Of a stretch of 46,840 nt of DNA, positions 3,418 to 19,819 are shown piece by piece. Below the pieces are notes generated by a model that saw only the letters and a program-made list of their open reading frames with translations, was not told the origin of the DNA and ran no database searches. This DNA is from a virus (Duplodnaviria > Caudoviricetes), in IMG/VR virus record IMGVR_UViG_3300049889_000013, positions 1-46,840 of that record. One strand, written 5' to 3'. Numbering within the stretch: the first letter of the stretch is position 1; each line of letters starts with the position of its first letter. Position numbers and translations under genes: made by a program.

Positions 3418-3789
3418 TCAGCGACTCACTGCGCCAGCCGGAGCATTCGTGAGAGTCGCCCCCGCCAGTGAGTCGTCGAGTTTGACTTGGCTGGCAGGGG
3501 CTGCACCAGGAGAGAGCGGATCCGCCTGGATGCGCGCGGCGACGTCGCGCCAGTGATCGACGCGCGAGATCATCGCGTCGAGCTTGGCCTGCAGATCAGT
3601 ATCGATCGCGGATCCGCCGGACGTCTTCACCTTGCGGTACAGCGCCAGCGCGTGCTCCTTCGCCTGACCCTCGGCGTCGGAGATGATCCGATTGACCGCC
3701 GGGAGGAAGCGGCTGGCCACGTAAGCCACCCACTGCTCGGGCGTGTACTGCGCAGTCGATTGCTGCGCGCCGGTTTGTTGCTCAGCCAA
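3418..3789 (-). CDS. Hypothetical protein
   Basis: Probable TTG start overlapping the upstream stop; GC3-rich codons. Confidence 0.6.
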   Translation of the reverse strand: MAEQQTGAQQSTAQYTPEQWVAYVASRFLPAVNRIISDAEGQAKEHALALYRKVKTSGGSAIDTDLQAKLDAMISRVDHWRDVAARIQADPLSPGAAPASQVKLDDSLAGATLTNAPAGAVSR

Positions 3790-5492: not shown

Positions 5493-6014
5493 TCATGCCA
5501 TCGCGACTGCCACGCCTTTGATGAGGCCGGTCGTCACGAAGTCGGTCAGGTACGCGAAGATCCGGCCGACCAGGGCGAGCGCGGAGTTCTGGAGCCCGGC
5601 CGCCTTCACCGCGCCGATGTTCTCCAGGCTGGCCATCGCCGACTGACGTTTGCGCAGCAGCGTCATCTGCGCATCGGAATTGTTGACGGCCGTGAGCAGG
5701 CTGACCCCGACGAACGCCAGCGTGTTGAGTGCGCGGCGCGCGATGTCACTTTCGTCCTGGCTCAGCTCCTGACCCTGCAGTTGCTTGAGGAAGTCGGACG
5801 TGGCGTTGTCCGCTTCGAGCCGAAGCCCGGAGATGAAGTCGGAGCCGCTCTGCGCGAGGCCGCCCCACAGCTGCTGCAGCTGATCCTCGATCGAGCTGGC
5901 GGCCGCGGCGGCTGCGCTGCCGGCGCCGGCGGCCGCGGCGGGAGCTGCTCCAGTGCCGGCGGTGTTGGGCGCGGATCCGGCCGCGGATCCGAATGGTGCA
6001 TTGGTCTGAGTCAC
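5493..6014 (-). CDS. Hypothetical Ala-rich helical protein in the lysis region
   Basis: AAGGAGG SD then GTG 6014; hydrophobic C-terminus. Confidence 0.65.
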   Translation of the reverse strand: MTQTNAPFGSAAGSAPNTAGTGAAPAAAAGAGSAAAAAASSIEDQLQQLWGGLAQSGSDFISGLRLEADNATSDFLKQLQGQELSQDESDIARRALNTLAFVGVSLLTAVNNSDAQMTLLRKRQSAMASLENIGAVKAAGLQNSALALVGRIFAYLTDFVTTGLIKGVAVAMA

Positions 6015-6087
6015 GAGATGCCTCCTTGGGGCAGAATGTGGAATGAAATAAAAAATGGAATAAAAACGCAGGGTTTTGCGCACGAAG

Positions 6088-6844: not shown

Positions 6845-7270
6845 CTACTTCTTCGCCGGCTCGGTCGGCTTTTTGTCGAGGAAAAATTGCCCGTCGCCCT
6901 TGGTCTCAAACACTGCCACCAGCTCTTTGAAGCCTCTCTGTAAGCTGAGTGGCAGAGGCCCGGCGTCCTCGCCGTTGTCCGGCGCGATGCGGCCCCATGC
7001 TGTCTTATCGGCTTCCGCCGTAGGAACGTTACCGCTGCGCTCGCGCCGAAAAGTTGTCGCGGCGGTGTGGGCGTGGGCGATGACGTGATCGGCCAGCATC
7101 TGGCGCTCGACGAGCCCCTTGAAGCCGACGGGGTCGTTGGCTTTGAGATGTCCGTAGAAGCGCCGCGCGTATCCGGCCACCAGCTCGTCTTCGAGCGCGT
7201 GACGCCACGCGGGGAGTGCCGGCGGCTTCTTCGCCGGCGGGTTTTTCTGCTGCTGCTGCTCTGCCATCAC
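6845..7270 (-). CDS. Hypothetical protein
   Basis: Coupled to the giant-gene stop (GTGATG); GGAGG SD. Confidence 0.65.
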   Translation of the reverse strand: MMAEQQQQKNPPAKKPPALPAWRHALEDELVAGYARRFYGHLKANDPVGFKGLVERQMLADHVIAHAHTAATTFRRERSGNVPTAEADKTAWGRIAPDNGEDAGPLPLSLQRGFKELVAVFETKGDGQFFLDKKPTEPAKK

Positions 7271-10200
7271 TTGCCTCCGGGGGTTGCGGGGTAGCGGGAT
7301 TTTCCACCTATGCCACGGGCTATATTAACCATCTGCGCCATGAGCACACGCAGCCGCTGCCGCTTGACCTCGGGGGTGAGGGCGTCCGATTCGTACACGC
7401 CGGTCATTGCCGCGCGCAGGTCCTTCAGCGCCTGGCCCGCGGCTTTGATCTGATCCGCTTTCTGCAGCACGTCCCGATTGCGCGCGATGTAGCTCTTGAG
7501 CTGATCGCCGCTGTAGTGCGGGATCGAGGCCTTCACACGGTCGAGGCGATCGGAGAGCGCGTAGAAGTCCGCCAGGCTCTGCGCGCTCGAGGGCTCCAGC
7601 TCGCGACCGAACATCATCTGCAGGCCGGGGATTGATTGCTTCCAATCGTCCGCCGGCGGCGGCGTCTTGGTGATGCCGGCGAGCGGGCGGAACACACCAT
7701 CGTCGATCGACTTGACCACCGAGCGCCCGAAGGTGCCGGTGTAGCCGTAGATCAGGTGATCGATGAGCAGCGGGCTCATGTTCAGGTGCTTCCCGATGAA
7801 CTTGGCGGTTTCGCTGGTGAAGCGCTTCTGCTGCAGCTCCGGCTCCAGCCGCTTGAGATCGTCGGGCACGATCGGCCGCTGGTTGAAGTAGTCGTAGTTG
7901 GCGGCCACTTCGTACAGAGGCTTGAGCGCGGTCACCATGTCGAGCGCCATGTTGAGCGCTGCGCCGGGCGACGGGATCAGCTCCTGCAGGAGCTTGGGAT
8001 CCTCATTCAGCGCGGCTTCGATCATCGCCGGCAGCGCGGTGCCGAGCACGAAGCCCCACTCCTGGGGCTTGCGGAAGCGAAACCAGCTCCGCGTCGTCTT
8101 GGGATCGCCGATCGGGAAGAGCCAATAGCCCTGCCGTTCGTTTGCGCGCTCCTGGTAATCGGGATTGTCTTTGCAAAGGTAATTGAGCAGCAGAGACATC
8201 GCCACCAGTGGCAGCGAGCGGATGAACATCGTGCCCGGCCGGTTCTTCACGTTGCGCGCGAAGGTGTCGGTGCCCTGGATCATCGCGTTGAAGAACGCGC
8301 GCAGCTTGCCGACGTCCTTGGCCCACGATCCGCCGCGGTTGAAGTCCACCGTCACGTCGCGCGCAGCCAGAGACGCGCGGGCGAGGCCTTCGCGGTTCAC
8401 GCCCTCCTTCTTCAGCGCCCGGGCAAACTCGCCGAGGCGCGTGGCGTCGTCGGATCCGTTGCTCAGCGCCTCCAGCAGATCGATGAATCGGGCCGGCATG
8501 TTCAGCCAGTGCTTCGCGCTGCCGAAGGCCGAGCGGTAGAGCTTGTGCATCTCGCGCTCGATCGGATCGTCCATCGAGCCCACCATGCCGGCGTGCGAGG
8601 CCTTGGAGTGCAGGTAGAGCTGGTAGGTCTCGTCCCGGCGCAGCAGGTGATAGAGCCCGACGGCGTTGTCCACGATCGGAAGGAAGCCATAGCGGGTTTG
8701 CATCCGCGCCGTGATCGTGTCGCGCATCACGTTGCCGGTCACAAAGTTGAGGTACAGCGTGAAGCCGCGGCGCATGATGCTCGCCGGCAGGGTCAGCACC
8801 CGGAGGATCAGGTTCTTGGAGTCGAGCGACGTCGTGCGCGCGGTGACCGCGTCGTAGAGCGCCGGATCGTGCAGCTGCCACACGTGGATCTTGCCGGCCA
8901 CGCGCAGGGCGATCTCCAGGTCCCGCGGGTTGTGCGCGATCGGCCGGAAGATCGTGAACGTCTGCTGCAGGTCGATCTTCGGCGGGATCGTGCCGCCAGG
9001 TCCCGACGGCTCGAAGTCGAGCGGATCCGCGCCGGCGGCGATGAGGTACTTTTTGATCTCTTCGAGCTGGCCACTGGTCGGCGCGATCGGCCGGGTGATC
9101 TTGTCGGCGTAGGTGTAATCCTTCCCTTTGCGGATCAGCTCGAACGCCAGCAGCCCGGCGCGGTTGCCGTCCACCAGGTCCACCATCCGGCGGATGTTTC
9201 GGATCATCGCCCCGATCGGGCGCTCGATGCGTCGGCCGCTGCCGCGGATCTGATGCAGCGCCTTGCCCTTGTCCACAAGGCCCGCGGAGCTGCCGTGCTG
9301 TTCCATGTAGTCGAGCACTCGGCTCCAGCGCACGTAACGCTGGTTGAGCGCGATCACAGCGTCGATCTGCCCGGGGGCGAAGAAGCCGCTTTGCTCCATG
9401 TAGCTCTTGAGCACGGCATGATTCCAACGCCACACACCCTGCGCCGCGGCGCGGAACGCCGGCGACTCATACTTGGCGATCGTCGCCTTGGCCTGATCCC
9501 AGGAGACGCCGAGCGGGCCGGCTTCGGGATCGACGACGTGCTTCAACTCGCGCACGTGTTTGCCCGTCGTCGGATCCACCGTCGCGGCCTGTGTGTACAG
9601 CTCGTCGGCGCGCTGCGCAACCAGGTAGGCCTCGAAGTTGCGGATCTGCTTTGCCGAGCGGATCCCGTTCTCGCGCATCACCGGCTCGATGCCCTTGGCC
9701 ACCGTCCGGCCGTCGCGATCGCGGACGCCGTACTTCACCCAGGAAAGCACCATGCCCGGATTGCCCGCGTTGAGCCGCGCCGCCACGTAGGCGTCGGCGT
9801 CGAACGTGTCGGGGAGCTGGCCGCCGCCGATGATGTCCTTGCGCATCCAGTCGAGCGGGGCAAAGTGATCGGCGATGTGGCGGTAGAGGTAGCTGTAAGC
9901 GCCCTCGTTGCCGCGCGGGCTGCGGATCGTCGGCCCGTCGTCGTCGAAGTTGATCTGACTCTCGAGCTTTTGGACGGGATCTTGCGCAAGGTACTGCGCG
10001 TACATTCCCTGCAGCTCTTTGATTGCCTGCCAAAGCTCCGGCTCTTTGAGCGTCTCGCCCTCGAACCAGGTGGAGTAACCCGGCGCCAGCGTCTGCGCCT
10101 GCACCGGGTCATACATGAAGATCCGGAACCACTCGGCCACACCTTCCTTGCGGACCTGCGCCTTGGTGTAGCTCTTGCGCGACGTGCGACGGCCGAGCGG

Positions 10201-13200
10201 CAGCAGCTCGGTGTCGAACGTCGCCGGCGGCTTGAGCCCGGTGATTCGATCGTCGATTGCGTGGCCCACTTCGTGCGCGAGCACCGCGATCTGATTGGCC
10301 ACGTGCTGCCGGATCAGCTTGTTCCAGTAGTACCCCAGCGCGCGCCGCTTGGGGCCGGCGAGGCGGCGCTGTTTGCCGACGGCGACGGCCAGCTTGAGCT
10401 TGTTGATCACGAAGTCTGTGATCTGCTGGCGGCTCATCGTCTGCGGTTGATGCTTCGCGCTCAGCACCGCCGGCGGGATGTTGGGCGTCGTCGCGTGGAG
10501 CTGGAGCTGCGGAGGCAGCTGGTCGACGATCGACGTCGGCAGCTCCGCCGGCTGGCCGCCACCTTCCGGCGGCGTGAAGAGATTGCGCTGGCTGCTTTTG
10601 CCGAACAGCGCTTTGACGGTCTCGATCTTCCCGCGCGGGACGTACAACCCGCTCACCACGTTCTCGCCCTGCTGCATCGTGACGTAGTGATTGCGCAGCG
10701 CCTGGGATCCGCTCTTGCCGTAGATGGCGTCCTGAATCACCGGGAGAGGGACCGCGTCCTTGGGGCGCGTCAGCAGTTTGCCCTGCAGGATCCCGTAGGT
10801 TTCGCCCGTCGTGCTTTCGACGGTGTGGATCTGCAGCGGGTGGTTGGTGTCGAGTTCGATCGACTGGCGGATCATGCCGCGGTTGCGCCGCGCCACTTTG
10901 CCGCCGGTCTTTGCCGACTCGATCGCCTCCAGCTCCTGCCAGCGCGCGTGTGCCTTGTCGTAGATCTCGTTGCCGAGCTGGTGCGGCAGCATCATCAGAT
11001 CATTCTGGAAGTCGCGCCAGCTCAGATCGTCCTCGTCGAGCTTGCCCTGGTGGAGAAGAAGATCCTGCTGCTGGCGCGGCAGTGCCCGCACGGTCTCGTT
11101 GATCGCGCGGTGCCACGTCGAGCTTTCCATGTCGAAGTCATTCAGCGCATCGCTCTCCGCGCCGGCGTCCTCTTGCCCTTTGCTGATGGCGCCCAGGCTC
11201 TTCATGCGCGCGGCGATCGTCGCCTGAAACTTGCGCTCCCCGGCGATCGGCGTGAAGATGGTCAGCGCGGCCGGGCTGGTCACCTGGTTGGCGCGGTCGA
11301 CGCGGCCGAGGGACTGCTTAAACTCCTTGCTGTCCCAATCCAGATCGAGCACCACCATGAACCGCCGGCCACTGCCCAGATCCTGCAGGTTGATCCCGGT
11401 CGTGCCCGCGGGGCTGATCACCGCCACCTTGCGCTTGCCGGATTGAAACTCTGCATTCTGCTCGATGCGCGCCTTGGGCGACGTCGCGCCGACGATCGCC
11501 GCCACGTTCTTCTCCCCGAACGCGTCGAGGATCTTCTGCAGGGGAGAGGGGCTCTTGTCGCGCCCGGTCGCTGCGAGCTGCTGGCGGATGGCTTTGAGGG
11601 CCGCGATCGCGTCGGGCTGATCTTCCCACTTCTGGATCTCACCTTTGGCGTCCTTCACCGCGCGCTGGGTGGGGATCGCGTCGAGCACGGCGCCGAGGTT
11701 GCCGCCCTGGCCGGTCAGATGCGTGTCACTGACGCCGAGGATCTTGAACACCACCTGCTCGCCGCGCGCGAGGGCCGCCTGCGCTTCGGCGATCGCCGCC
11801 GGCAGCCGGTACTCCACCAGCAGCCGCTTGATGAAGAAGATCGCCTGGCCATCCGGCCGCGGCGGGCTCCACAGCTGGCCCTTTTTCTTGGGGTGTGGCC
11901 ACTTCGAATTGTTCACCAGCTTCCGCGCCGACGCGTACAGGCGGATCGCGTGGTTGAGGTTCTCGGCCATGACGTCGTAGAGCGCCAGCTGCTCGGGCGT
12001 GACGGCCGCCTCGCGCATGTTGAATTCGAACCCACCGCGCCAGAAGTCGAGCGAGTGGTACGCGTTGTCCATTTTCAGCTCGCGCATGAGCTGCTCGATG
12101 ATCGGCGTGGCGATCGACTCGCGCCAGCTCCCCGCCTTGCTGATGCCGGTGGCGTTCTGCAGCCAGCCGTCGAAGGTCGACGTGCTGAGCTTCTCGGCCA
12201 TCTTCGGCGGATCCCACAGGCGCAGCCCGTACATGAACTTCAGCGCGGCGATGTCCGACGCCGGCGTGGCCGTCATGTAGACGAAGTGGCGCTGGCCGCT
12301 CGGCAGCAGTGCTTCATGCAGCAGCTCCAGGGCATTGGCGCGCTGGGTGTCGCCTTCGAGGTTCGAAAGCAGGTGCGCTTCGTCGACGATCACCAGGTCC
12401 GGGCGCCAGTCGGTGAAGGGCTTGAGGTACTTCACCAGGTTGAAGCTGTCGCCGAGCATCACCGTGGGCGCGTTTCGCGTCTGGTACTGCGTGAGGCCCG
12501 CCGGCTCCATGCCCGACGCGTTGACGATGCTCAGGCCCTGCGCGGCCAGCGGATCGAACGTCGCGCGCTGCTCGACGGTGAACGTGTTGATCAGGTCGGC
12601 GATGTTCTGACGGTTCTTGGTGAGAACAAGAATCTTGCGCTTGCCGGAGAGGCCGGCGAGGCTGCGGTAGATCTGGTCGGCGATCGTCGCGCCGATGACG
12701 CGCGACTTGCCCACGCCGACGTCGTCGGCGATCAGCGCGCCGGCGTTGGCGACGTGGATCCGGTACCCGATCGCGGCCGCTTGATCGCGCTGGGGGTCGG
12801 AGACGTCGGCGGCGGCGCGGGGGTCGAGCTCGTAGCCGGCGAGGTCCCCGGCGCGGACGCCGGCGAGGGCTTTTGATTCGACGAGAAGTCGGGGGTGATG
12901 ATGTCCCCGCCGCCACGGAGGAAGCGGAACATAAGGGCTAACCCGGTCGCTGCGGAGTGCGTCGAGATAATGCGCGGACTGTCCTGGTCCGAGCCACTCA
13001 GGTAACCCATCGCGTCGTCCAGGCTCGTCAGGAAGGCCTGCTCCCGATCCTTCACTTCCGGGAACCACGCCGGCGTTACCTGATCCTGGTCGAACGTCAG
13101 AACCTCCGACCAGCTCTCCCCCAGGTGCGGAGCCGTCCCCGGCCCCTCCTGTTGGAGTCGCTCCAGCACGTCCTTGAGCCGCGCTTGCCTTCCGAAGTCG

Positions 13201-16200
13201 ATCACTGGCCGCCTCTCGTTTGAACGGGGGAAGCTCGCCGATGGCGCTCTTCACGTCCTCATCGGCTGCCAGGTCGCTCCACAGCTTCGACAGCAGATCG
13301 GTGAAGCCGCTGTCCTCGACCGTGTAGCCCAGGTCCTTGAGGATCCCGCTCAGATCCGAGCGTACCCCTTCGGCCCACCGGCGCAACATCTTGTCGCCGG
13401 CTTCGGCCTGTTGTTCAAGGTGAAAAGTGGCAATCCGGGCAAGACGTTCCGCCACCGCGGGATCTTTGAGCAGCTCGGCGGGGTTGATCGATTGATCGCC
13501 GCCGGCGGTGGCCATGAACGTCGGGCCCTGGCCTGTGATCCGCCGCGGCATGTGCAGCGCGCCGCGCAGTGTCTGACTCATCAGCTCGGGATAGCTGAGC
13601 ATGTCGCGCAGCTCGTCGAGGGTGGAGAAGTACTTCTCGGGCCCGCCGCCGAAGAGACCGCCGCCCGCGCGCTCGAGCTTGCCGGCCGTCACGGGCTTGC
13701 CTGCTCGATCGGTGGGGACGTCGTTCTCGAACGCCGCGGCCCATGCTTTCGCCGGCGTCACTTGTGAATCGGTCGCGAAGGCAAAGGTGGTCTCGCCGGG
13801 CCGGAAGTTGCGCGCGTGATCCATGTAGGCGCGGATCCGCTCGCGCCAGCCCACGCTGTTGTCGTTGACCAGGCGGCGCAGCAGCAGCCGCGCGCGCTTC
13901 ATGTCCGACTCGGTGATCCGATCGGCCACCATCAGCTTCTGACCGTCGGCCGCCTCGCCCTTGAGCCAGGCATCCAGCGGGGCCTGCGCCGCGCGCCAGC
14001 GGAGGAAGCCGTACAGCGCCTGCTGCAGATCTGCGGTGAAGTCCCATTCGCGCCCGAGCGTCTTGGGGTAAACGATGCCGAAGAGGTTGCCGGTGATCTT
14101 GTTGGCCGTCGCCGCCGGCAGGTTGTCGAACACGCCGACGTCGGGAATCGCCACCGCCTGCAGGATGCGCTCAATGAGGCGCTTGCCGTCCTCGCTGAGC
14201 ATCCCGGTCTCGGGGTGCTCGAAGCGCGCGTACTCCTGTTTGGTGAGAACCTCGCTCTTGATCAGCCAGCTCTTGAGTTCGGCCACTTTCGCCGGTGTGC
14301 TCATCACTTCGCGGATCGATTCATCGTCGCCGAGCACCGACTGCAGGCGCTCCAGCGTGCCCGGGCTGTCGAGCAGGATCCGCGCGCGGCTGGCGGCGTC
14401 CATCGCGCCGCTCATCTCCTGCGTGCGTCCCTTCTGCAGCACCCGCACCAGCACGCGCATTCGCGCGGGGTCGTTGGTCTCTTCCTGGATCACGCGCACG
14501 AGAACCGGATCCTCGACGCCGGCGGCGTCCTCTTTGCGGATCCCGAATCGCTCGGCCGAGCCGATCACCAGGCTGCGGAAGTTGGTCGCGCGCGTGCTCT
14601 TGCCGTCGCCGCGCATCACACCGCCCATGCCGTACACGCGCTGGATGACCATCGCGCGCGAGTTGCCGCCCATGACGCGGCCGTTGGGCAGGATCATGGG
14701 CGGGCCGTTCACCGGGTCGGGGTTGTCGGTCAGCAGCCACACCGGGTTGAAGTCGAGATCGTTCTGCTGGACCTTGGCCTTCTCATCCTTCGAGTGCTGG
14801 TAATCGCGCTCCTGGACGTTGGGCGGGTACTTCTCGCTCGGCTTGAAGGTGTGCGCGTCGTGCGAGGGGATCAGATCCTTCGCCGACACGATCGCGTAGG
14901 CCGACGGCACCGGGTCGGTGGCGGTCTCGATCGGCTGCGCGCGGCCCACCAGCTGCTTGATCGCGGGGAGCTGCTCGACGGGCTCGATGCCCAGCGCCTT
15001 GCGCGCTTTGGCCTCCAGCTCGGGCGTGAGTTTGATGAAGCGGCCGGCGCGGCTGACTTTGATCTTGCCGTCGGCGCGGTGGGTGAACTGATACGGGCCC
15101 TGATTGACGATCTTGGATGCGCCCGGCTCGGTGATCGCCGGCGGGATCCACGTGGGCGTGCCTGTCGGGTTTCCCCCAGGTGGGAGATCGCCGGCGGTGG
15201 CCCTCACGCCAGCCGCCGGCTTCTCGTCGTTTAGTAGCCGCCCTTGCCCTTGCCGCTCTTCTTCGAGCCGCCCTTCTTCGCCGGCGGTCGAGCCGAGTTG
15301 CGCTTCGTCGTTGCCTTCGACTTCGCGCCCATCATCTTGGACTTGTTGGTTGCTGCCATGGTTGGTGCCTCCTTTCTCGGCGGGCAGTGTATCACCCGCG
15401 CGGGCCGGCTCCAGTCGCTCGACGGTTTCTTTTGCGCGCGCCGCCAGCTCGCCGGTTTTCACCGCTTCACCCTTGAGCTGATGAAGGAGATCTTTGTTGC
15501 CGGCCAATCCACTCTCGAGATCGGCAGCGACGGGCGCCTTCTCCGGCAGCCGGTTCTGCAGCTGACCCTTGAGCTGGTCGTAGTGCTTCAGCGCCTCTTT
15601 GAGCGGGAGGCGCGTGCCGTCCGGGAACACCACGGCCTCGACGTCGTCGGGGTGGACGTAGCTCTTCCCCTCGCTGGTGACTGCGATGTGGTTGACGAGC
15701 CCCTTCGCCGGCGTGCCCCGGTTGGTACCAGGCTTGAGCACAACCGCCACGGGGAGTTCAGAGGATCGTCCCACGGCGTAGGTGATGGCTGTAGAGGGGG
15801 TGTCGGAACCGAACCCGCCCGCTGGCACAAGCTCAGCGTCAATATCGCCAGAAAGGCGAGAAGGATGAATCCCGTCGCGCGCGATGAGCTGCAGATTTCG
15901 GGCGTCCGTGCCATGGATCACTTCTCCGGGTTTGACCGCGCGCATCAGGCCGGCCTTCTGCTCGGCGCGGTTCTTGATCATCGACGTGGGGGCCACGCCG
16001 GTCGGCTTCTTCACTTCCGTCTTGGTCGATCGCGCCGGCTCGGGCGCGCCGATCGCTTCGATGACGGGGACCTGTTTGAATCCGGCGTTTTGCGCCGCGG
16101 CGAGCTGATCCGCGCCGTCGAGCACCTGCCACCCGCCGTTGGCCAGCTTGCGAACGACGATCGGGGGGACCGCGTCCGATTGGTTCTCGGGGCCCGGTGC

Positions 16201-18777
16201 GAATTTGCGCATCCAGTGCTTGATGCCGTCGGGCGTGGGGCTGCCGGTGTCGAGGATCTGGTTGGTGGCGATCTGCGTCGTCTTGCCGAACTTCACCGAC
16301 GGATCCAGCTGCAGCCGGCTCTGCGCGCGGCTCTTCGCCGCCGTCATCGATGAGAGCTTCGGTTTCCAATCGGGCTGTCCCAGGTCGGCCGGCGGCGCCG
16401 GCAGCTTCCGGCCGCCGATCCCCTGTTCAGGTGAGGGCTCGATCCGCCGCGCCACTTCGGCGTCGGCCATGTCGGCCAGTGCCTTCGCGCGCTGCAGGAG
16501 CCCGGTGGTTTTGTCGCGCTCGCCGAGCAGCTCATCCATCAAGGCGCGGTTCTTGCCGTCGCCGGCGATCGCGTCGAGGGCCGGCTTGGTGAAGGAGCGC
16601 GTGCCGTCGGGTCCTTTGGGCGCGTACTGATCGAGCAGATTGCGCGCGCGAGCGATCGACGCTTCGCGCGGGCTCAGCAGATCCGTGTTGGCCGGCTTGG
16701 GCTTGAGTTCGGGCGGGGTCTCGAACGTCGCCTGCTTTAAGAGTGCGTCGATCGCGGCCTGGTCGGTATCGACGCCACCTGCAGGGCCGGCGGCGGCGGT
16801 GCCTGTTGCCGCCGTCGGTGCTCCTGCAGGCTGCTTCGCCGACTGGTCAACGCTCGCGCGTTTGAATTTCGAAAGCAGGTCCGCCGTGCTGGCCAGATCC
16901 TTCAACGTGACTTTGTTGGCATCCATCGCCTGCCAGAAGTCTTTCCCGTTGCTGTAGTCATTGCGCGCTTTGGCCACGCGAAGGGCAGACTCCTTCTGCT
17001 CGGTGCTCAGCTCGATCCCGACGTCGCCGAAGGGCTTGGTGAAGTCGGATCCCACGGCGTTGCGCAGCTGGCGGTTGACCCACAGATCGCGCACGCCGCG
17101 CAACAGCAGGGTTGGGGTGTGCTCCAGGACCGGGTTGAGCATCATCCCCATCGCCGCCGTCATCCGGCTGTCCTGGCGGCTCATGTCCAGCGACTGCAGC
17201 GCGGCCAGCGGGTGACCGTCGATCAGGTGATTGACCGCCGTGAACACAGGCATCTCCGCGCCGCCGGCGAGAGAGCTTGCAGCGAGCTTGGAGAGGATCC
17301 CCGCGTTGTTGAACGCCGTCGGTGCGACCGCGCGGCCGGCCGCCTGAACCGCGCCGCCGATCGACTCTTCGCCGGCGACGGCCGCCACGGCGTTTCGAAT
17401 CGGTTGGCCGATCGCGGGCCCCAGCGCTTTGCCGAGGAACCATGCCGGCGAGCCGGGCGTCATGTAGCCGAGCGTGCTGGCCAGCATCGAGTAGATCGGA
17501 TGCTGTGTCTGGTACCCGGCGCGGAAGGCGTCGTACTTCTCTTTGTTGTCCGCGCCGCCGAGGCGGGCGATCTGCGCGGGGAGCCCCAGATCTGCAGCGT
17601 TCACCCATTCGTTGAACGCCGCCCACAGAGGATGCCGCGCCGCGGCCGCCGCGCCGGCGTTGCCGACTTCGACCTGGTGAGCGGCCTGCACGATCGCCTG
17701 ATCGTTTCCCGCCTGGCCGGTGTCATCGTCTTGAAGGGGGCCGGACGTCTGGCGGCGCTGGATCCGCTGCGCCGCCGAGCTGGCCAGCGCGGGAAGCATC
17801 GCCTTGGCGATCGCGTCCCGATACAGATCCGGGTTGCGCTTCACCAGCTCCAGAATCGTGCCGTCGGACTGATCCTTGAGCCCCGGGCCGAAGTTGGGGT
17901 CGGTCTTCAGCGCCTGCACGACGAGCTGCTGGCCCTGGTGCTCCAAAACCTGCGTGTCGAACTTGCTGAGCTGATCATCCGACAGATCCTTCGCCGCGGG
18001 ATACTTCGCGCGCAGGGCCTGAACGCTGGCGCTCTTCTCGGCCTGCTCGCGCTGCTCGATCGTGCCTTTGAGCACTTCGGGCATCGGCTGGCCGTCGGGG
18101 ATGAGCGCGCGGGCTTCGTCGATCATCGATTGATCGTGAAGGAGCGGCCGATCGGTGTTGTGGAACGCCGCCTGCTGCAGCTGGTCGATCGGCACCGCGT
18201 TGCCGGCGGCGTCGGTGTGATCGCCGGCGAAGTCGAACACCTGCAGATCCGGGGGCAGGGGCTGATTCGGATACTTCACCATGAACGCGCGGCGCAGCTT
18301 CTGCCACGTGTCGTAATCGAGTGACTGAGGGACCGCGCCGTTGATCGCGCCGCGGACGTCGCCGCCGACGGTCGTTCGCGGCTGCATCGCCTGCTGCAGA
18401 TCCGCCGCGGCCGCGTTCACCCGGGTGTTGTCGAGTTCTGGTACCTGGAGCTGGCTGAGGCGCTTGAGGTACGGCGCGAGGTTGTCGCCGGCGTCCATCG
18501 CCGTGTGCAGTTTGAGCGTGGCTTCGGCGACGTCGAACGGATCGCCGCCCTTTTGCATCGTCACGCCACTGGAGTCGCCGACGATCTGCGTCTGGCGCAT
18601 GTCCATGCTCGGCGCGGGCGGCTGCGCGTCCGGCAGCTCGGCAACCGCCGTCGAGCCGGTGAAGTTGTTGGTCACCGTGTCGCCGGCGGGGAGTTGTGTC
18701 GTTCCCTCCGGCTGCGCGCGCATCGTCTGCGCGGTCGATTGGCTCAGCTGCTGCTCGGCGAGGTCAAAAGCATCCAT
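7267..18777 (-). CDS. Giant polyvalent (probably virion-ejected) protein, 3836 aa
   Basis: ParB-like (PPIVVRK...VLDG), possible ART-like (IHGT..NL..I..DGI), DdrB-like ParB (LIPSHD...QERDY...GPP...GGNSR), Strawberry-notch-type SF2 helicase (DDVGVGKS, DEAH, TATP, GINLQ, QSLGRVDR), zincin HEVGH, LPD38-like C-terminus (RDVTVDF.RGG..FFNA..QG). Confidence 0.85.
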   Translation of the reverse strand: MDAFDLAEQQLSQSTAQTMRAQPEGTTQLPAGDTVTNNFTGSTAVAELPDAQPPAPSMDMRQTQIVGDSSGVTMQKGGDPFDVAEATLKLHTAMDAGDNLAPYLKRLSQLQVPELDNTRVNAAAADLQQAMQPRTTVGGDVRGAINGAVPQSLDYDTWQKLRRAFMVKYPNQPLPPDLQVFDFAGDHTDAAGNAVPIDQLQQAAFHNTDRPLLHDQSMIDEARALIPDGQPMPEVLKGTIEQREQAEKSASVQALRAKYPAAKDLSDDQLSKFDTQVLEHQGQQLVVQALKTDPNFGPGLKDQSDGTILELVKRNPDLYRDAIAKAMLPALASSAAQRIQRRQTSGPLQDDDTGQAGNDQAIVQAAHQVEVGNAGAAAAARHPLWAAFNEWVNAADLGLPAQIARLGGADNKEKYDAFRAGYQTQHPIYSMLASTLGYMTPGSPAWFLGKALGPAIGQPIRNAVAAVAGEESIGGAVQAAGRAVAPTAFNNAGILSKLAASSLAGGAEMPVFTAVNHLIDGHPLAALQSLDMSRQDSRMTAAMGMMLNPVLEHTPTLLLRGVRDLWVNRQLRNAVGSDFTKPFGDVGIELSTEQKESALRVAKARNDYSNGKDFWQAMDANKVTLKDLASTADLLSKFKRASVDQSAKQPAGAPTAATGTAAAGPAGGVDTDQAAIDALLKQATFETPPELKPKPANTDLLSPREASIARARNLLDQYAPKGPDGTRSFTKPALDAIAGDGKNRALMDELLGERDKTTGLLQRAKALADMADAEVARRIEPSPEQGIGGRKLPAPPADLGQPDWKPKLSSMTAAKSRAQSRLQLDPSVKFGKTTQIATNQILDTGSPTPDGIKHWMRKFAPGPENQSDAVPPIVVRKLANGGWQVLDGADQLAAAQNAGFKQVPVIEAIGAPEPARSTKTEVKKPTGVAPTSMIKNRAEQKAGLMRAVKPGEVIHGTDARNLQLIARDGIHPSRLSGDIDAELVPAGGFGSDTPSTAITYAVGRSSELPVAVVLKPGTNRGTPAKGLVNHIAVTSEGKSYVHPDDVEAVVFPDGTRLPLKEALKHYDQLKGQLQNRLPEKAPVAADLESGLAGNKDLLHQLKGEAVKTGELAARAKETVERLEPARAGDTLPAEKGGTNHGSNQQVQDDGREVEGNDEAQLGSTAGEEGRLEEERQGQGRLLNDEKPAAGVRATAGDLPPGGNPTGTPTWIPPAITEPGASKIVNQGPYQFTHRADGKIKVSRAGRFIKLTPELEAKARKALGIEPVEQLPAIKQLVGRAQPIETATDPVPSAYAIVSAKDLIPSHDAHTFKPSEKYPPNVQERDYQHSKDEKAKVQQNDLDFNPVWLLTDNPDPVNGPPMILPNGRVMGGNSRAMVIQRVYGMGGVMRGDGKSTRATNFRSLVIGSAERFGIRKEDAAGVEDPVLVRVIQEETNDPARMRVLVRVLQKGRTQEMSGAMDAASRARILLDSPGTLERLQSVLGDDESIREVMSTPAKVAELKSWLIKSEVLTKQEYARFEHPETGMLSEDGKRLIERILQAVAIPDVGVFDNLPAATANKITGNLFGIVYPKTLGREWDFTADLQQALYGFLRWRAAQAPLDAWLKGEAADGQKLMVADRITESDMKRARLLLRRLVNDNSVGWRERIRAYMDHARNFRPGETTFAFATDSQVTPAKAWAAAFENDVPTDRAGKPVTAGKLERAGGGLFGGGPEKYFSTLDELRDMLSYPELMSQTLRGALHMPRRITGQGPTFMATAGGDQSINPAELLKDPAVAERLARIATFHLEQQAEAGDKMLRRWAEGVRSDLSGILKDLGYTVEDSGFTDLLSKLWSDLAADEDVKSAIGELPPFKREAASDRLRKASAAQGRAGATPTGGAGDGSAPGGELVGGSDVRPGSGNAGVVPGSEGSGAGLPDEPGRRDGLPEWLGPGQSAHYLDALRSDRVSPYVPLPPWRRGHHHPRLLVESKALAGVRAGDLAGYELDPRAAADVSDPQRDQAAAIGYRIHVANAGALIADDVGVGKSRVIGATIADQIYRSLAGLSGKRKILVLTKNRQNIADLINTFTVEQRATFDPLAAQGLSIVNASGMEPAGLTQYQTRNAPTVMLGDSFNLVKYLKPFTDWRPDLVIVDEAHLLSNLEGDTQRANALELLHEALLPSGQRHFVYMTATPASDIAALKFMYGLRLWDPPKMAEKLSTSTFDGWLQNATGISKAGSWRESIATPIIEQLMRELKMDNAYHSLDFWRGGFEFNMREAAVTPEQLALYDVMAENLNHAIRLYASARKLVNNSKWPHPKKKGQLWSPPRPDGQAIFFIKRLLVEYRLPAAIAEAQAALARGEQVVFKILGVSDTHLTGQGGNLGAVLDAIPTQRAVKDAKGEIQKWEDQPDAIAALKAIRQQLAATGRDKSPSPLQKILDAFGEKNVAAIVGATSPKARIEQNAEFQSGKRKVAVISPAGTTGINLQDLGSGRRFMVVLDLDWDSKEFKQSLGRVDRANQVTSPAALTIFTPIAGERKFQATIAARMKSLGAISKGQEDAGAESDALNDFDMESSTWHRAINETVRALPRQQQDLLLHQGKLDEDDLSWRDFQNDLMMLPHQLGNEIYDKAHARWQELEAIESAKTGGKVARRNRGMIRQSIELDTNHPLQIHTVESTTGETYGILQGKLLTRPKDAVPLPVIQDAIYGKSGSQALRNHYVTMQQGENVVSGLYVPRGKIETVKALFGKSSQRNLFTPPEGGGQPAELPTSIVDQLPPQLQLHATTPNIPPAVLSAKHQPQTMSRQQITDFVINKLKLAVAVGKQRRLAGPKRRALGYYWNKLIRQHVANQIAVLAHEVGHAIDDRITGLKPPATFDTELLPLGRRTSRKSYTKAQVRKEGVAEWFRIFMYDPVQAQTLAPGYSTWFEGETLKEPELWQAIKELQGMYAQYLAQDPVQKLESQINFDDDGPTIRSPRGNEGAYSYLYRHIADHFAPLDWMRKDIIGGGQLPDTFDADAYVAARLNAGNPGMVLSWVKYGVRDRDGRTVAKGIEPVMRENGIRSAKQIRNFEAYLVAQRADELYTQAATVDPTTGKHVRELKHVVDPEAGPLGVSWDQAKATIAKYESPAFRAAAQGVWRWNHAVLKSYMEQSGFFAPGQIDAVIALNQRYVRWSRVLDYMEQHGSSAGLVDKGKALHQIRGSGRRIERPIGAMIRNIRRMVDLVDGNRAGLLAFELIRKGKDYTYADKITRPIAPTSGQLEEIKKYLIAAGADPLDFEPSGPGGTIPPKIDLQQTFTIFRPIAHNPRDLEIALRVAGKIHVWQLHDPALYDAVTARTTSLDSKNLILRVLTLPASIMRRGFTLYLNFVTGNVMRDTITARMQTRYGFLPIVDNAVGLYHLLRRDETYQLYLHSKASHAGMVGSMDDPIEREMHKLYRSAFGSAKHWLNMPARFIDLLEALSNGSDDATRLGEFARALKKEGVNREGLARASLAARDVTVDFNRGGSWAKDVGKLRAFFNAMIQGTDTFARNVKNRPGTMFIRSLPLVAMSLLLNYLCKDNPDYQERANERQGYWLFPIGDPKTTRSWFRFRKPQEWGFVLGTALPAMIEAALNEDPKLLQELIPSPGAALNMALDMVTALKPLYEVAANYDYFNQRPIVPDDLKRLEPELQQKRFTSETAKFIGKHLNMSPLLIDHLIYGYTGTFGRSVVKSIDDGVFRPLAGITKTPPPADDWKQSIPGLQMMFGRELEPSSAQSLADFYALSDRLDRVKASIPHYSGDQLKSYIARNRDVLQKADQIKAAGQALKDLRAAMTGVYESDALTPEVKRQRLRVLMAQMVNIARGIGGKSRYPATPGGK
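12732..13205 (-). CDS. Candidate nested +1-frame gene within the giant gene (157 aa)
   Basis: GAGAGG SD 6 nt before GTG. The first ~110 codons are GC3-rich and protein-like, while the main frame there is largely a Gly-rich linker with atypical codons. Confidence 0.55.
   Translation of the reverse strand: MIDFGRQARLKDVLERLQQEGPGTAPHLGESWSEVLTFDQDQVTPAWFPEVKDREQAFLTSLDDAMGYLSGSDQDSPRIISTHSAATGLALMFRFLRGGGDIITPDFSSNQKPSPASAPGTSPATSSTPAPPPTSPTPSAIKRPRSGTGSTSPTPAR
15231..15359 (-). CDS. Candidate nested +1-frame Lys-rich peptide (42 aa)
   Basis: TGnTACACT extended -10 (15394-15386), AAGGAGG SD (15374-15368), ATG...TAA: MAATNKSKMMGAKSKATTKRNSARPPAKKGGSKKSGKGKGGY. Confidence 0.65.
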   Translation of the reverse strand: MAATNKSKMMGAKSKATTKRNSARPPAKKGGSKKSGKGKGGY

Positions 18778-18796
18778 GCGCTTGTCCTGTGGGCGT

Positions 18797-19819
18797 TCAT
18801 CCGGTTGGTTGCGTCGTCGGGTTGGCGGCCGTCACGACGGGGGCACGTTCGCCGCGCTGCGCCGCGGCGCGGGCCTTGGCTGCAGATCCGTACTTCTTCA
18901 CCAGGTAGAGCACGTCGGCCTGACCGACGGGCGGCACGTTCGTGATCGACGTCGAGCCGGCGGCGCTCCCGCCGGCGGCCGCGGCGGGCGCCGGCGCGGA
19001 GCTGGTGTCTGAGCCGCCGCTGACCAGGTCGAGCATTTGCTGGTTGAGATCGTCGAGCTGGCCCTGCAGCGCCTTCTGCCCCGCGTCATCGCCCAGGAGC
19101 ATCGGGCTGGCGAGGCGCTTCTGCAGGTTGGAGATCTGATCGTGGAGGATCTTCGCCTTGCCGCGGGTCTCGGCCTGCTGCTGCGAGACCGTCATGCGCT
19201 TGTTGTCCATGTCGAGCCGCGCCTGCTCGTAGGGCGTGAGCTGGTTGTCGGTCGTGTGGCTGGCGGCGCGGAGCGCGAGCTGCTCGTTGACCGTCTGATC
19301 TTCAAAGGGGTTCTTGCCGCCGACGATCTGCGCGCGGTACCGGATGGCTTCTTCGGGGCGCAGCGCTCCCTGCTGCTCCATCTGCTGCACGTACCCCATG
19401 AGCTGCTGCTGCTGCGGATTGAGATAACCGCCGCCGGCGAGCACGGCCGAGGATCCGCCGCGGCCGCCGCCCATCGGTGGCGATTCACCCGCGGGGTGAT
19501 AGATCGTTGCGCCGGGACCGCCGCCCTGACCGCCGACGAGAGCGCCGTTGGTGTCGATCATCGCCGGCGTCGACGCCTGAGGCGCGAGCTGCTCGGTGTA
19601 GCCGCCGCCGACTTGGCCGCCGGCGTAACCCTGCACCTGGTCATTGAGCTGCTGGCTGTGCTGGTCGGCCGCGGCCATGCGCGTGTTGAGGCCCTGCTGC
19701 GCCAGCTGCTGAGCCTCCAGCGACTGCTGCATCTGATCGCGGTTGGTGGCGTATCTCGACGCCTGGCTGCCGAGCGTGGCGACCAGCGCCGGATCGTCGT
19801 ATCGAAGAACAACGGGCAT
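18797..19819 (-). CDS. Putative internal virion/ejection protein
   Basis: Gln/Gly/Ala-rich and helical; lies between the tail genes and the giant gene. Confidence 0.55.
   Translation of the reverse strand: MPVVLRYDDPALVATLGSQASRYATNRDQMQQSLEAQQLAQQGLNTRMAAADQHSQQLNDQVQGYAGGQVGGGYTEQLAPQASTPAMIDTNGALVGGQGGGPGATIYHPAGESPPMGGGRGGSSAVLAGGGYLNPQQQQLMGYVQQMEQQGALRPEEAIRYRAQIVGGKNPFEDQTVNEQLALRAASHTTDNQLTPYEQARLDMDNKRMTVSQQQAETRGKAKILHDQISNLQKRLASPMLLGDDAGQKALQGQLDDLNQQMLDLVSGGSDTSSAPAPAAAAGGSAAGSTSITNVPPVGQADVLYLVKKYGSAAKARAAAQRGERAPVVTAANPTTQPTG

Follow-up and report, generated by a model that had tools for sequence, protein, structure and literature searches.

Introduction

Polyvalent proteins are giant multidomain phage proteins that join LPD domains to conflict domains, and the main text of Iyer et al. 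2017 (PMC5512222) describes their ejection together with the DNA. In P1, with DarB as archetype, a 17 kDa protein called Ulx aids DarB localisation and is encoded by a separate open reading frame (ORF) next to the giant methylase-helicase gene, according to the available text of PMC9024508. Nested genes are known from the lambda Rz/Rz1 pair, in which the +1 frame of a larger phage gene holds a whole small gene, mostly over a tolerant stretch, and the two products form a complex (available text of PMC5295617). Here we analyse the virus record IMGVR_UViG_3300049889_000013, whose whole 46.8-kb stretch (46,840 nucleotides) we call the window, and an ORF nested in its giant gene, ORF-B (12732..13205; minus strand, as are all window features below). 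ORF-B is, on the strength of its sequence features, very probably a real gene with its own ribosome-binding site and start.

The outer gene (7267..18777, about 11.5 kb) encodes a protein of 3836 amino acids (aa). Pfam places ddrB-ParB at residues 1288-1430, AAA_34 at 1961-2268, Helicase_C_4 at 2435-2573 and LPD38 at 3545-3696, all above the Pfam cut-offs, so that the protein fits the definition of a large polyvalent protein; a ParB_N match is weak. AAA_34 and Helicase_C_4 form a Strawberry-notch-type superfamily 2 (SF2) helicase module (11059..12897), in which a Walker A motif (ADDVGVGKS) and a DEAH motif are present. The P1 DarB archetype, as described in the main text of PMC5512222, is likewise a giant multidomain protein with ddrB-ParB, a Strawberry-notch-type SWI2/SNF2 ATPase and LPD38, encoded among virion genes. 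In a relative, P0015, an intein-like insertion with a homing-endonuclease annotation seems to split the Walker A region of the helicase, near residue 2100.

Like the small gene of the Rz/Rz1 pair, as the available text presents it, ORF-B is wholly embedded in the +1 frame, covers mainly a tolerant part of the outer gene and has its own conserved start signals. Unlike that pair, the outer gene here is a polyvalent enzyme that is predicted to be ejected, both frames are under constraint over about 43 codons, and one outer gene holds two or more nested ORFs. ORF-B also lacks the signal peptide and lipobox cysteine of an Rz1-type lipoprotein; it contains no cysteine and no N-terminal hydrophobic segment, and its product looks soluble. 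The main text of PMC5512222, supplements apart, holds no passage on out-of-frame nested genes, and no report of nested genes in polyvalent or DarB-like genes was found in a literature search whose coverage left out most subscription papers. Embedded +1 genes are already known; the present case contributes a clade free of the methylase, another conserved ORF nested in the same giant gene and a host genome with a name.

Codon bias and start signals of ORF-B

The sequence-only reading had placed a nested +1-frame gene in the linker before the helicase domain, and the ORF with the peptide it quoted was found at 13205..12732, with a GTG start and 157 aa, the outer ORF remaining intact across it. 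Positions 12000-16000 recur without a difference in contigs from two public DNA runs, and either run may be where this DNA came from. A codon model based on 13 other window genes was applied along the giant gene in 190 sliding windows. In only 8 of these did the +1 frame beat the main frame, six over ORF-B and two at 15357-15297. Over 13206-12870 the proportion of main-frame codons ending in G or C (GC3) falls to 50/112 (0.45; binomial p 3e-28 against 0.88 expected), with a +1-frame GC3 of 0.82, and 3' of AAT CAA AAG the main-frame value is back up to 44/46 (0.96). Both the shift of codon bias into the +1 frame from about 13205 to about 12870 and its return to the main frame near AAT CAA AAG, as noted earlier from the sequence, are therefore borne out by frame-specific GC3.

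Since main-frame GC3 is low over the core and normal over the tail, the signal is carried by only about 110 residues of ORF-B. The selected core (12870..13205, about 112 aa) has predicted helices at residues 4-20, 32-35, 54-69 and 82-97 and contains the motifs LGESW, PAWFP and ITPD. It falls into two zones: in zone 1 (13003..13206; main-frame GC3 27/68) the main frame is a Gly/Pro-rich linker and conservation lies in the +1 frame, and zone 2 (12874..13002; merely 23/43) is dual-coded, the main frame being conserved into the HPRLLVES motif of the helicase. The tail (12732..12869) consists of 46 Ser/Pro/Thr-rich residues without +1 selection.

A Shine-Dalgarno (SD)-like GAGAGG, also part of the earlier claim, is located at 13212..13217, 6 nt 5' of the GTG. 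Its duplex with the anti-SD sequence (-6.9 kcal/mol) is inside the range of ordinary genes of the same phage. The position of the ORF-B stop varies among relatives, and the tail would therefore be dispensable. In all likelihood, judging from these signals, internal initiation at 13205 yields a protein of about 110 functional residues followed by such a tail.

Conservation in close relatives

The close set comprises the giant proteins P0002-P0005, which are 56-62% identical to the window protein over the region. DNA was at hand for two relatives: L001, a prophage-like locus at about 3.055-3.076 Mb of the Fontivita pretiosa B-254 chromosome, and L002, a metagenomic contig. Interruption of the +1 frame in close homologues would have spoken against a gene; in both relatives it is uninterrupted (130 aa in L001, 122 aa in L002) and both frames are intact. 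In L001, ORF-B begins with ATG two codons after a +1 stop, behind an SD of -8.8 kcal/mol, and is 50% identical to its window counterpart; in L002 it begins with GTG, again two codons after a +1 stop, behind the SD GGAGG (-10.3 kcal/mol), and is 41% identical. This placement in L001 and L002, as the second codon after the +1 stop and behind an SD, fixes where the ORF starts. At the homologous position, 3/3 close loci have an SD and a start, despite helicases that differ by 30-45%.

When the linker was aligned locally on its own, the z scores against shuffles for the three close pairs were 18.9, 7.2 and 12.0 in the +1 frame, compared with 4.5, 1.9 and 3.8 in the main frame and 3.5, 1.3 and 3.4 in the +2 frame. 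Zone 2, of 43 codons, behaves differently. Its main frame is 67-84% identical to the two relatives, yet main-frame GC3 is 0.53, 0.60 and 0.63 in the three loci against 0.90 expected; rare A/T-ending codons are retained under conserved main-frame residues. Because the main frame is conserved while its GC3 stays low in 3/3 loci, zone 2 is under constraint in both frames. The earlier description of the main frame as mostly Gly-rich filler consequently holds for the first 68 codons and fails for the next 43. Frame-specific conservation together with the GC3 flip indicates selection on the inner frame.

For proteins without DNA, back-translations were compared with the +1 profile. The score of P0003 (z 7.4) was higher than in any of 40 shuffles, which makes this protein compatible with the profile; P0004 (z 2.5) could not be told apart from shuffled sequences, and 8 distant proteins gave z 0.7-2.9.

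Besides the giant gene, the window encodes an SU10-type portal and adaptor, a sigma-70-like gene and an integrase. The integrase of L001 is 52% identical to that of the window, and several neighbours occur in the same order. Since the F. pretiosa locus is related to the window, a planctomycete-like host is suggested for the window's phage.

Distant helicase loci and the adjoining methylase

A helicase N-terminal profile anchored 11 distinct loci; L016-L065 (50 loci) lay outside the profile matches and are left out of this count, and a Walker A scan of 15 of them returned nothing. Of the 11 loci, 10 have a +1 ORF just 5' of the helicase that is at least about 100 codons long, with GC3 higher in the +1 than in the main frame; that of L008 is clipped by the contig end. 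A three-sequence ORF-B profile scored L006 at 14.4 bits and L009 at 12.2 bits (0/200 shuffles each), these being the top non-self matches among 5575 six-frame pieces, and hhalign of ORF-B gave E 1e-4 with L006 and 5e-5 with L009. The nested ORFs of L006 and L009, both methylase-bearing loci, are thus weakly but significantly homologous to ORF-B, and a six-way alignment retains P-x-W-x-P and a C-terminal T-P-D-like end.

The +1 stop ranges from before the HPR motif of the helicase to 54 codons past it. Alternatively to a separate gene, ORF-B might form the N-terminus of a shorter helicase isoform that starts internally and undergoes a programmed -1 shift near AAT CAA AAG; a +1 shift of the giant protein, with termination in ORF-B, is a variant of this idea. 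Such a shift would account for the +1 bias stopping where the helicase starts, and the window has an AAAA run there. This run is private to the window, neither L001 nor L002 having an A/T run of four, and an X XXY YYZ slippery heptamer is present in 0/3 loci. The +1 frame ends 3-5 codons past the HPR motif in L006, L008 and L009 and before it in L010, L011, L012 and L015. Moreover, such an isoform would leave out the 43 codons before the supposed shift, over which the main frame is conserved. We regard a frameshift product as highly improbable, and the speculation of a -1 shift into the helicase frame, raised in the sequence-only reading, is not supported.

Immediately upstream of ORF-B, a clade-specific domain without a Pfam match (13222..13578; aa 1734-1852) sits where distant relatives carry an N6-adenine methyltransferase. 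An NPP(W/F/Y) methylase motif was found 235-324 residues upstream of the helicase start in 9/9 distant proteins with a located helicase start. A profile built from the methyltransferases of 9 relatives found nothing in the window protein, in P0002-P0004 or in the six frames of the window (best E 0.58), and Pfam agrees in showing no methyltransferase in the outer protein. The window protein thus differs from the DarB methylase-helicase dyad of PMC5512222 (main text), in which an N6-adenine methyltransferase with NPPY/F lies directly N-terminal to the SF2 helicase. In P0005, the L002 protein, the profile did detect a methyltransferase (residues 1474-1630; L002 about 5550-6050), which is inserted about 800 residues upstream of the helicase and does not adjoin it.

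A quick helicase tree (20 rows, midpoint root) places the window protein and P0002-P0005 on one side of a branch with support 100. The parsimonious reading of these alignments is that the methylase was lost or replaced in the window clade. Because ORF-B is present in a clade without an adjoining methylase, the nested gene is, on this distribution, independent of one. The domain upstream varies and the helicase downstream is constant, and the nested gene is therefore tied to the helicase side. With the window helicase as tblastn query no match was obtained among INPHARED phages; with L009 as query, plasmid and phage matches were confined to the first third of L009.

Predicted product and searches for further copies

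AlphaFold2, run on three sequences, gave a compact helical model with three long helices (predicted local distance difference test score, pLDDT, 76.9; predicted template modelling score, pTM, 0.73). The persistence of ORF-B in related phages, also where the usual methylase neighbour is lacking, makes a real, folded product likely. Its core, with 17 D/E and 10 K/R, is mildly acidic; the relatives show this to a lesser degree. No sequence or profile match to ORF-B was found in Pfam, PHROGs, NCBIfam or PDB sequences. The best fold scores were not meaningful (Z 4.2 among 48,161 PDB representatives, E 1.8 in BFVD) and the best Atlas score was 0.89, so a fold is neither named nor excluded by these searches. 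A complex prediction of ORF-B with helicase residues 1915-2625 scored 0.00 and gives no verdict either way.

An exhaustive profile search returned 10 matches, of which P0016, P0018 and P0021 were inspected. P0016 is the ORF-B protein of L002, which a gene caller had predicted as a gene of 122 aa on a single contig of 3.6 kb. The end of P0018 is clearly the C-terminal half of ORF-B, but the record appears to drift between frames, probably reflecting an error-rich assembly. P0021 is a tandem repeat. A word-index search with ORF-B 1-112 gave no standalone homologue (0/20 candidates), scans of viral contigs with ORF-B or its alignment gave no further locus, and a profile search through all six frames of 401 genomes from the Fontivita phylum hit Fontivita itself only. 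By exact sequence, the window and L001 ORF-B proteins are absent from a collection of 15 billion. The earlier suggestion of a fused-over ancestral gene finds agreement in the presence of the ORF beside helicases only about 30% identical, and none in these searches, which found no standalone copy.

Evidence against a translated gene

Several observations weigh against our reading of ORF-B as a gene that serves the helicase. An open +1 frame is in itself unremarkable: under synonymous re-coding of the main frame with the gene's normal codon usage it arises with P=0.65 in the window, the values for all three close loci being 0.65, 0.65 and 0.28. These three (the window, L001 and L002) are the only close loci with DNA. 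Raw identity of the linker in the +1 frame (33-38%) is not above that of the main frame (36-46%), the two being alike because the main frame is Gly-rich, and in 2/3 close pairs the +1 differences are nearly flat by codon position. Given these similar identities and flat differences, constraint on the N-terminal half of ORF-B is, as far as alignments tell, loose and motif-like rather than uniform. Among the distant loci, L014 is without a convincing +1 ORF, and homology to 5/7 distant +1 ORFs is not established: L008 scored 2.7 bits (3/200 shuffles), and L015, L011, L012 and L010 did no better than chance (8-50/200). Finally, the location beside the helicase could merely reflect that the linker is the sole tolerant place.

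The openness of the frame and the low identity of the N-terminal half would suit a relic or by-product, that is, a former gene or a consequence of main-frame linker composition which is no longer translated. A relic would hardly keep its SD and start at one position in all three close loci while the helicases diverged, nor rare A/T-ending codons under conserved main-frame residues; the +1-specific conservation and the confident predicted fold speak against it as well. We therefore consider a relic improbable. The overlapping-gene reading stands on the uninterrupted +1 frame, the kept SD and start, the higher conservation of the +1 than of the main frame in the linker and a product that folds in silico.

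Further nested ORFs and candidate promoters

The second region in which the +1 frame prevailed belongs to nested ORF-A (15231..15359), a Lys-rich +1-frame ORF of 42 aa. Its SD, AAAGGAGG (15375-15368), is the strongest out-of-frame SD in the giant gene (-11.6), and main-frame GC3 over ORF-A is 25/43. Both close relatives have counterparts with strong SDs (L001:8286 and L002:5044; 26 and 40 aa). It is a guess that ORF-A might be a DNA-binding or condensing peptide.

The sequence TGATACACT (15386..15394), 35 nt 5' of ORF-A, is the sole extended -10-like TGnTAnnnT on the sense strand of the giant gene. Similarly, TGGTATAAT at 3034-3026 on the minus strand of L006 is the sole TGnTAnnnT in 3.7 kb and lies 29 nt 5' of the nested ORF there. 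In L002 a TACACT that lacks the TG precedes ORF-A, and in L001 the motif is absent. We treat TGATACACT as a candidate internal promoter, as a lead only. A standard sigma-70 scan of 12500-19000 gave 0 promoter sites, and the coding strand of that interval showed no terminator-like site.

A possible third nested +1 ORF runs from 15914 to 15588, with an ATG, a GGAGAAG SD and a hydrophobic segment at residues 15-29. Main-frame GC3 is 38/60 over its 5' part, and the main-frame domain that it overlaps has Tox-ART-HYD1/PARP-type look-alikes in Atlas (0.92-0.93).

Function, origin and significance

As to function, we lean tentatively, at somewhat less than even chances, to the product of ORF-B being a partner of the helicase, acting as a chaperone or inhibitor in the producing cell. 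The reasons for this choice are that linkage to the 5' end of the helicase is constant although the upstream domains change, that dual coding carries a cost, and that Rz/Rz1 offers a precedent in which embedded products act together. Translation would begin inside the giant gene, at 13205, from either the long late mRNA or a shorter internal transcript; the long mRNA alone would suffice for expression. The small helical product may then bind the helicase module and serve as a chaperone or off-switch in the producing cell. A more specific version, which we hold with slightly greater reserve, is that it binds the Strawberry-notch-type helicase and holds it folded or off until the giant protein is packaged and ejected. 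Nesting would ensure that enzyme and partner are inherited jointly during module shuffling. ORF-B probably began as a small gene directly in front of the helicase gene and was engulfed when a module farther upstream became fused to the helicase by read-through in another frame.

It is nearly as likely that ORF-B is a real gene but a passenger, independent of the helicase: a trapped ancestral neighbour such as a regulator or a helper in virion assembly or packaging, like Ulx of P1. This alternative, which we also take to be possible at rather less than even chances, draws equally on all the evidence for a real gene. Lys-rich ORF-A in another linker of the same gene indicates that linkers may generally harbour engulfed genes, and the available text of PMC9024508 reports a small DarB helper in P1. 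Ulx, a separate ORF, and ORF-B share the setting of a small protein beside a giant gene, a functional analogy only; no similarity between them was found, and none was specifically sought. A passenger would not be expected to stay at the helicase 5' end in 10/11 loci while upstream domains change, or to impose a dual-coding cost on its C-terminal 43 codons, and searches by sequence and by fold turned up no tie to a known helper.

A broader and more speculative version of the helicase-partner reading, which we think unlikely, is that giant polyvalent genes are palimpsests, which would grow by running across small neighbouring genes in a different frame and would preserve these as working genes within their linkers, some of them served by internal promoters. 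ORF-B would then be the cognate inhibitor of the helicase, an antidote inseparable from the enzyme during module swaps.

The window clade is informative in this respect, since the nested gene persists in it without an adjacent methylase, which points to the helicase; moreover, one member is a prophage of Fontivita pretiosa B-254, a named bacterium whose genome has been sequenced completely. Polyvalent proteins are widespread conflict weapons of phages and plasmids, whose low-complexity linkers pass for filler. If such linkers hide selected genes, then annotation misses a family of small proteins without a known fold, and deletions or domain swaps in giant genes would hit a second target. If true, it would also provide a concrete mechanism for domain accretion in giant genes.

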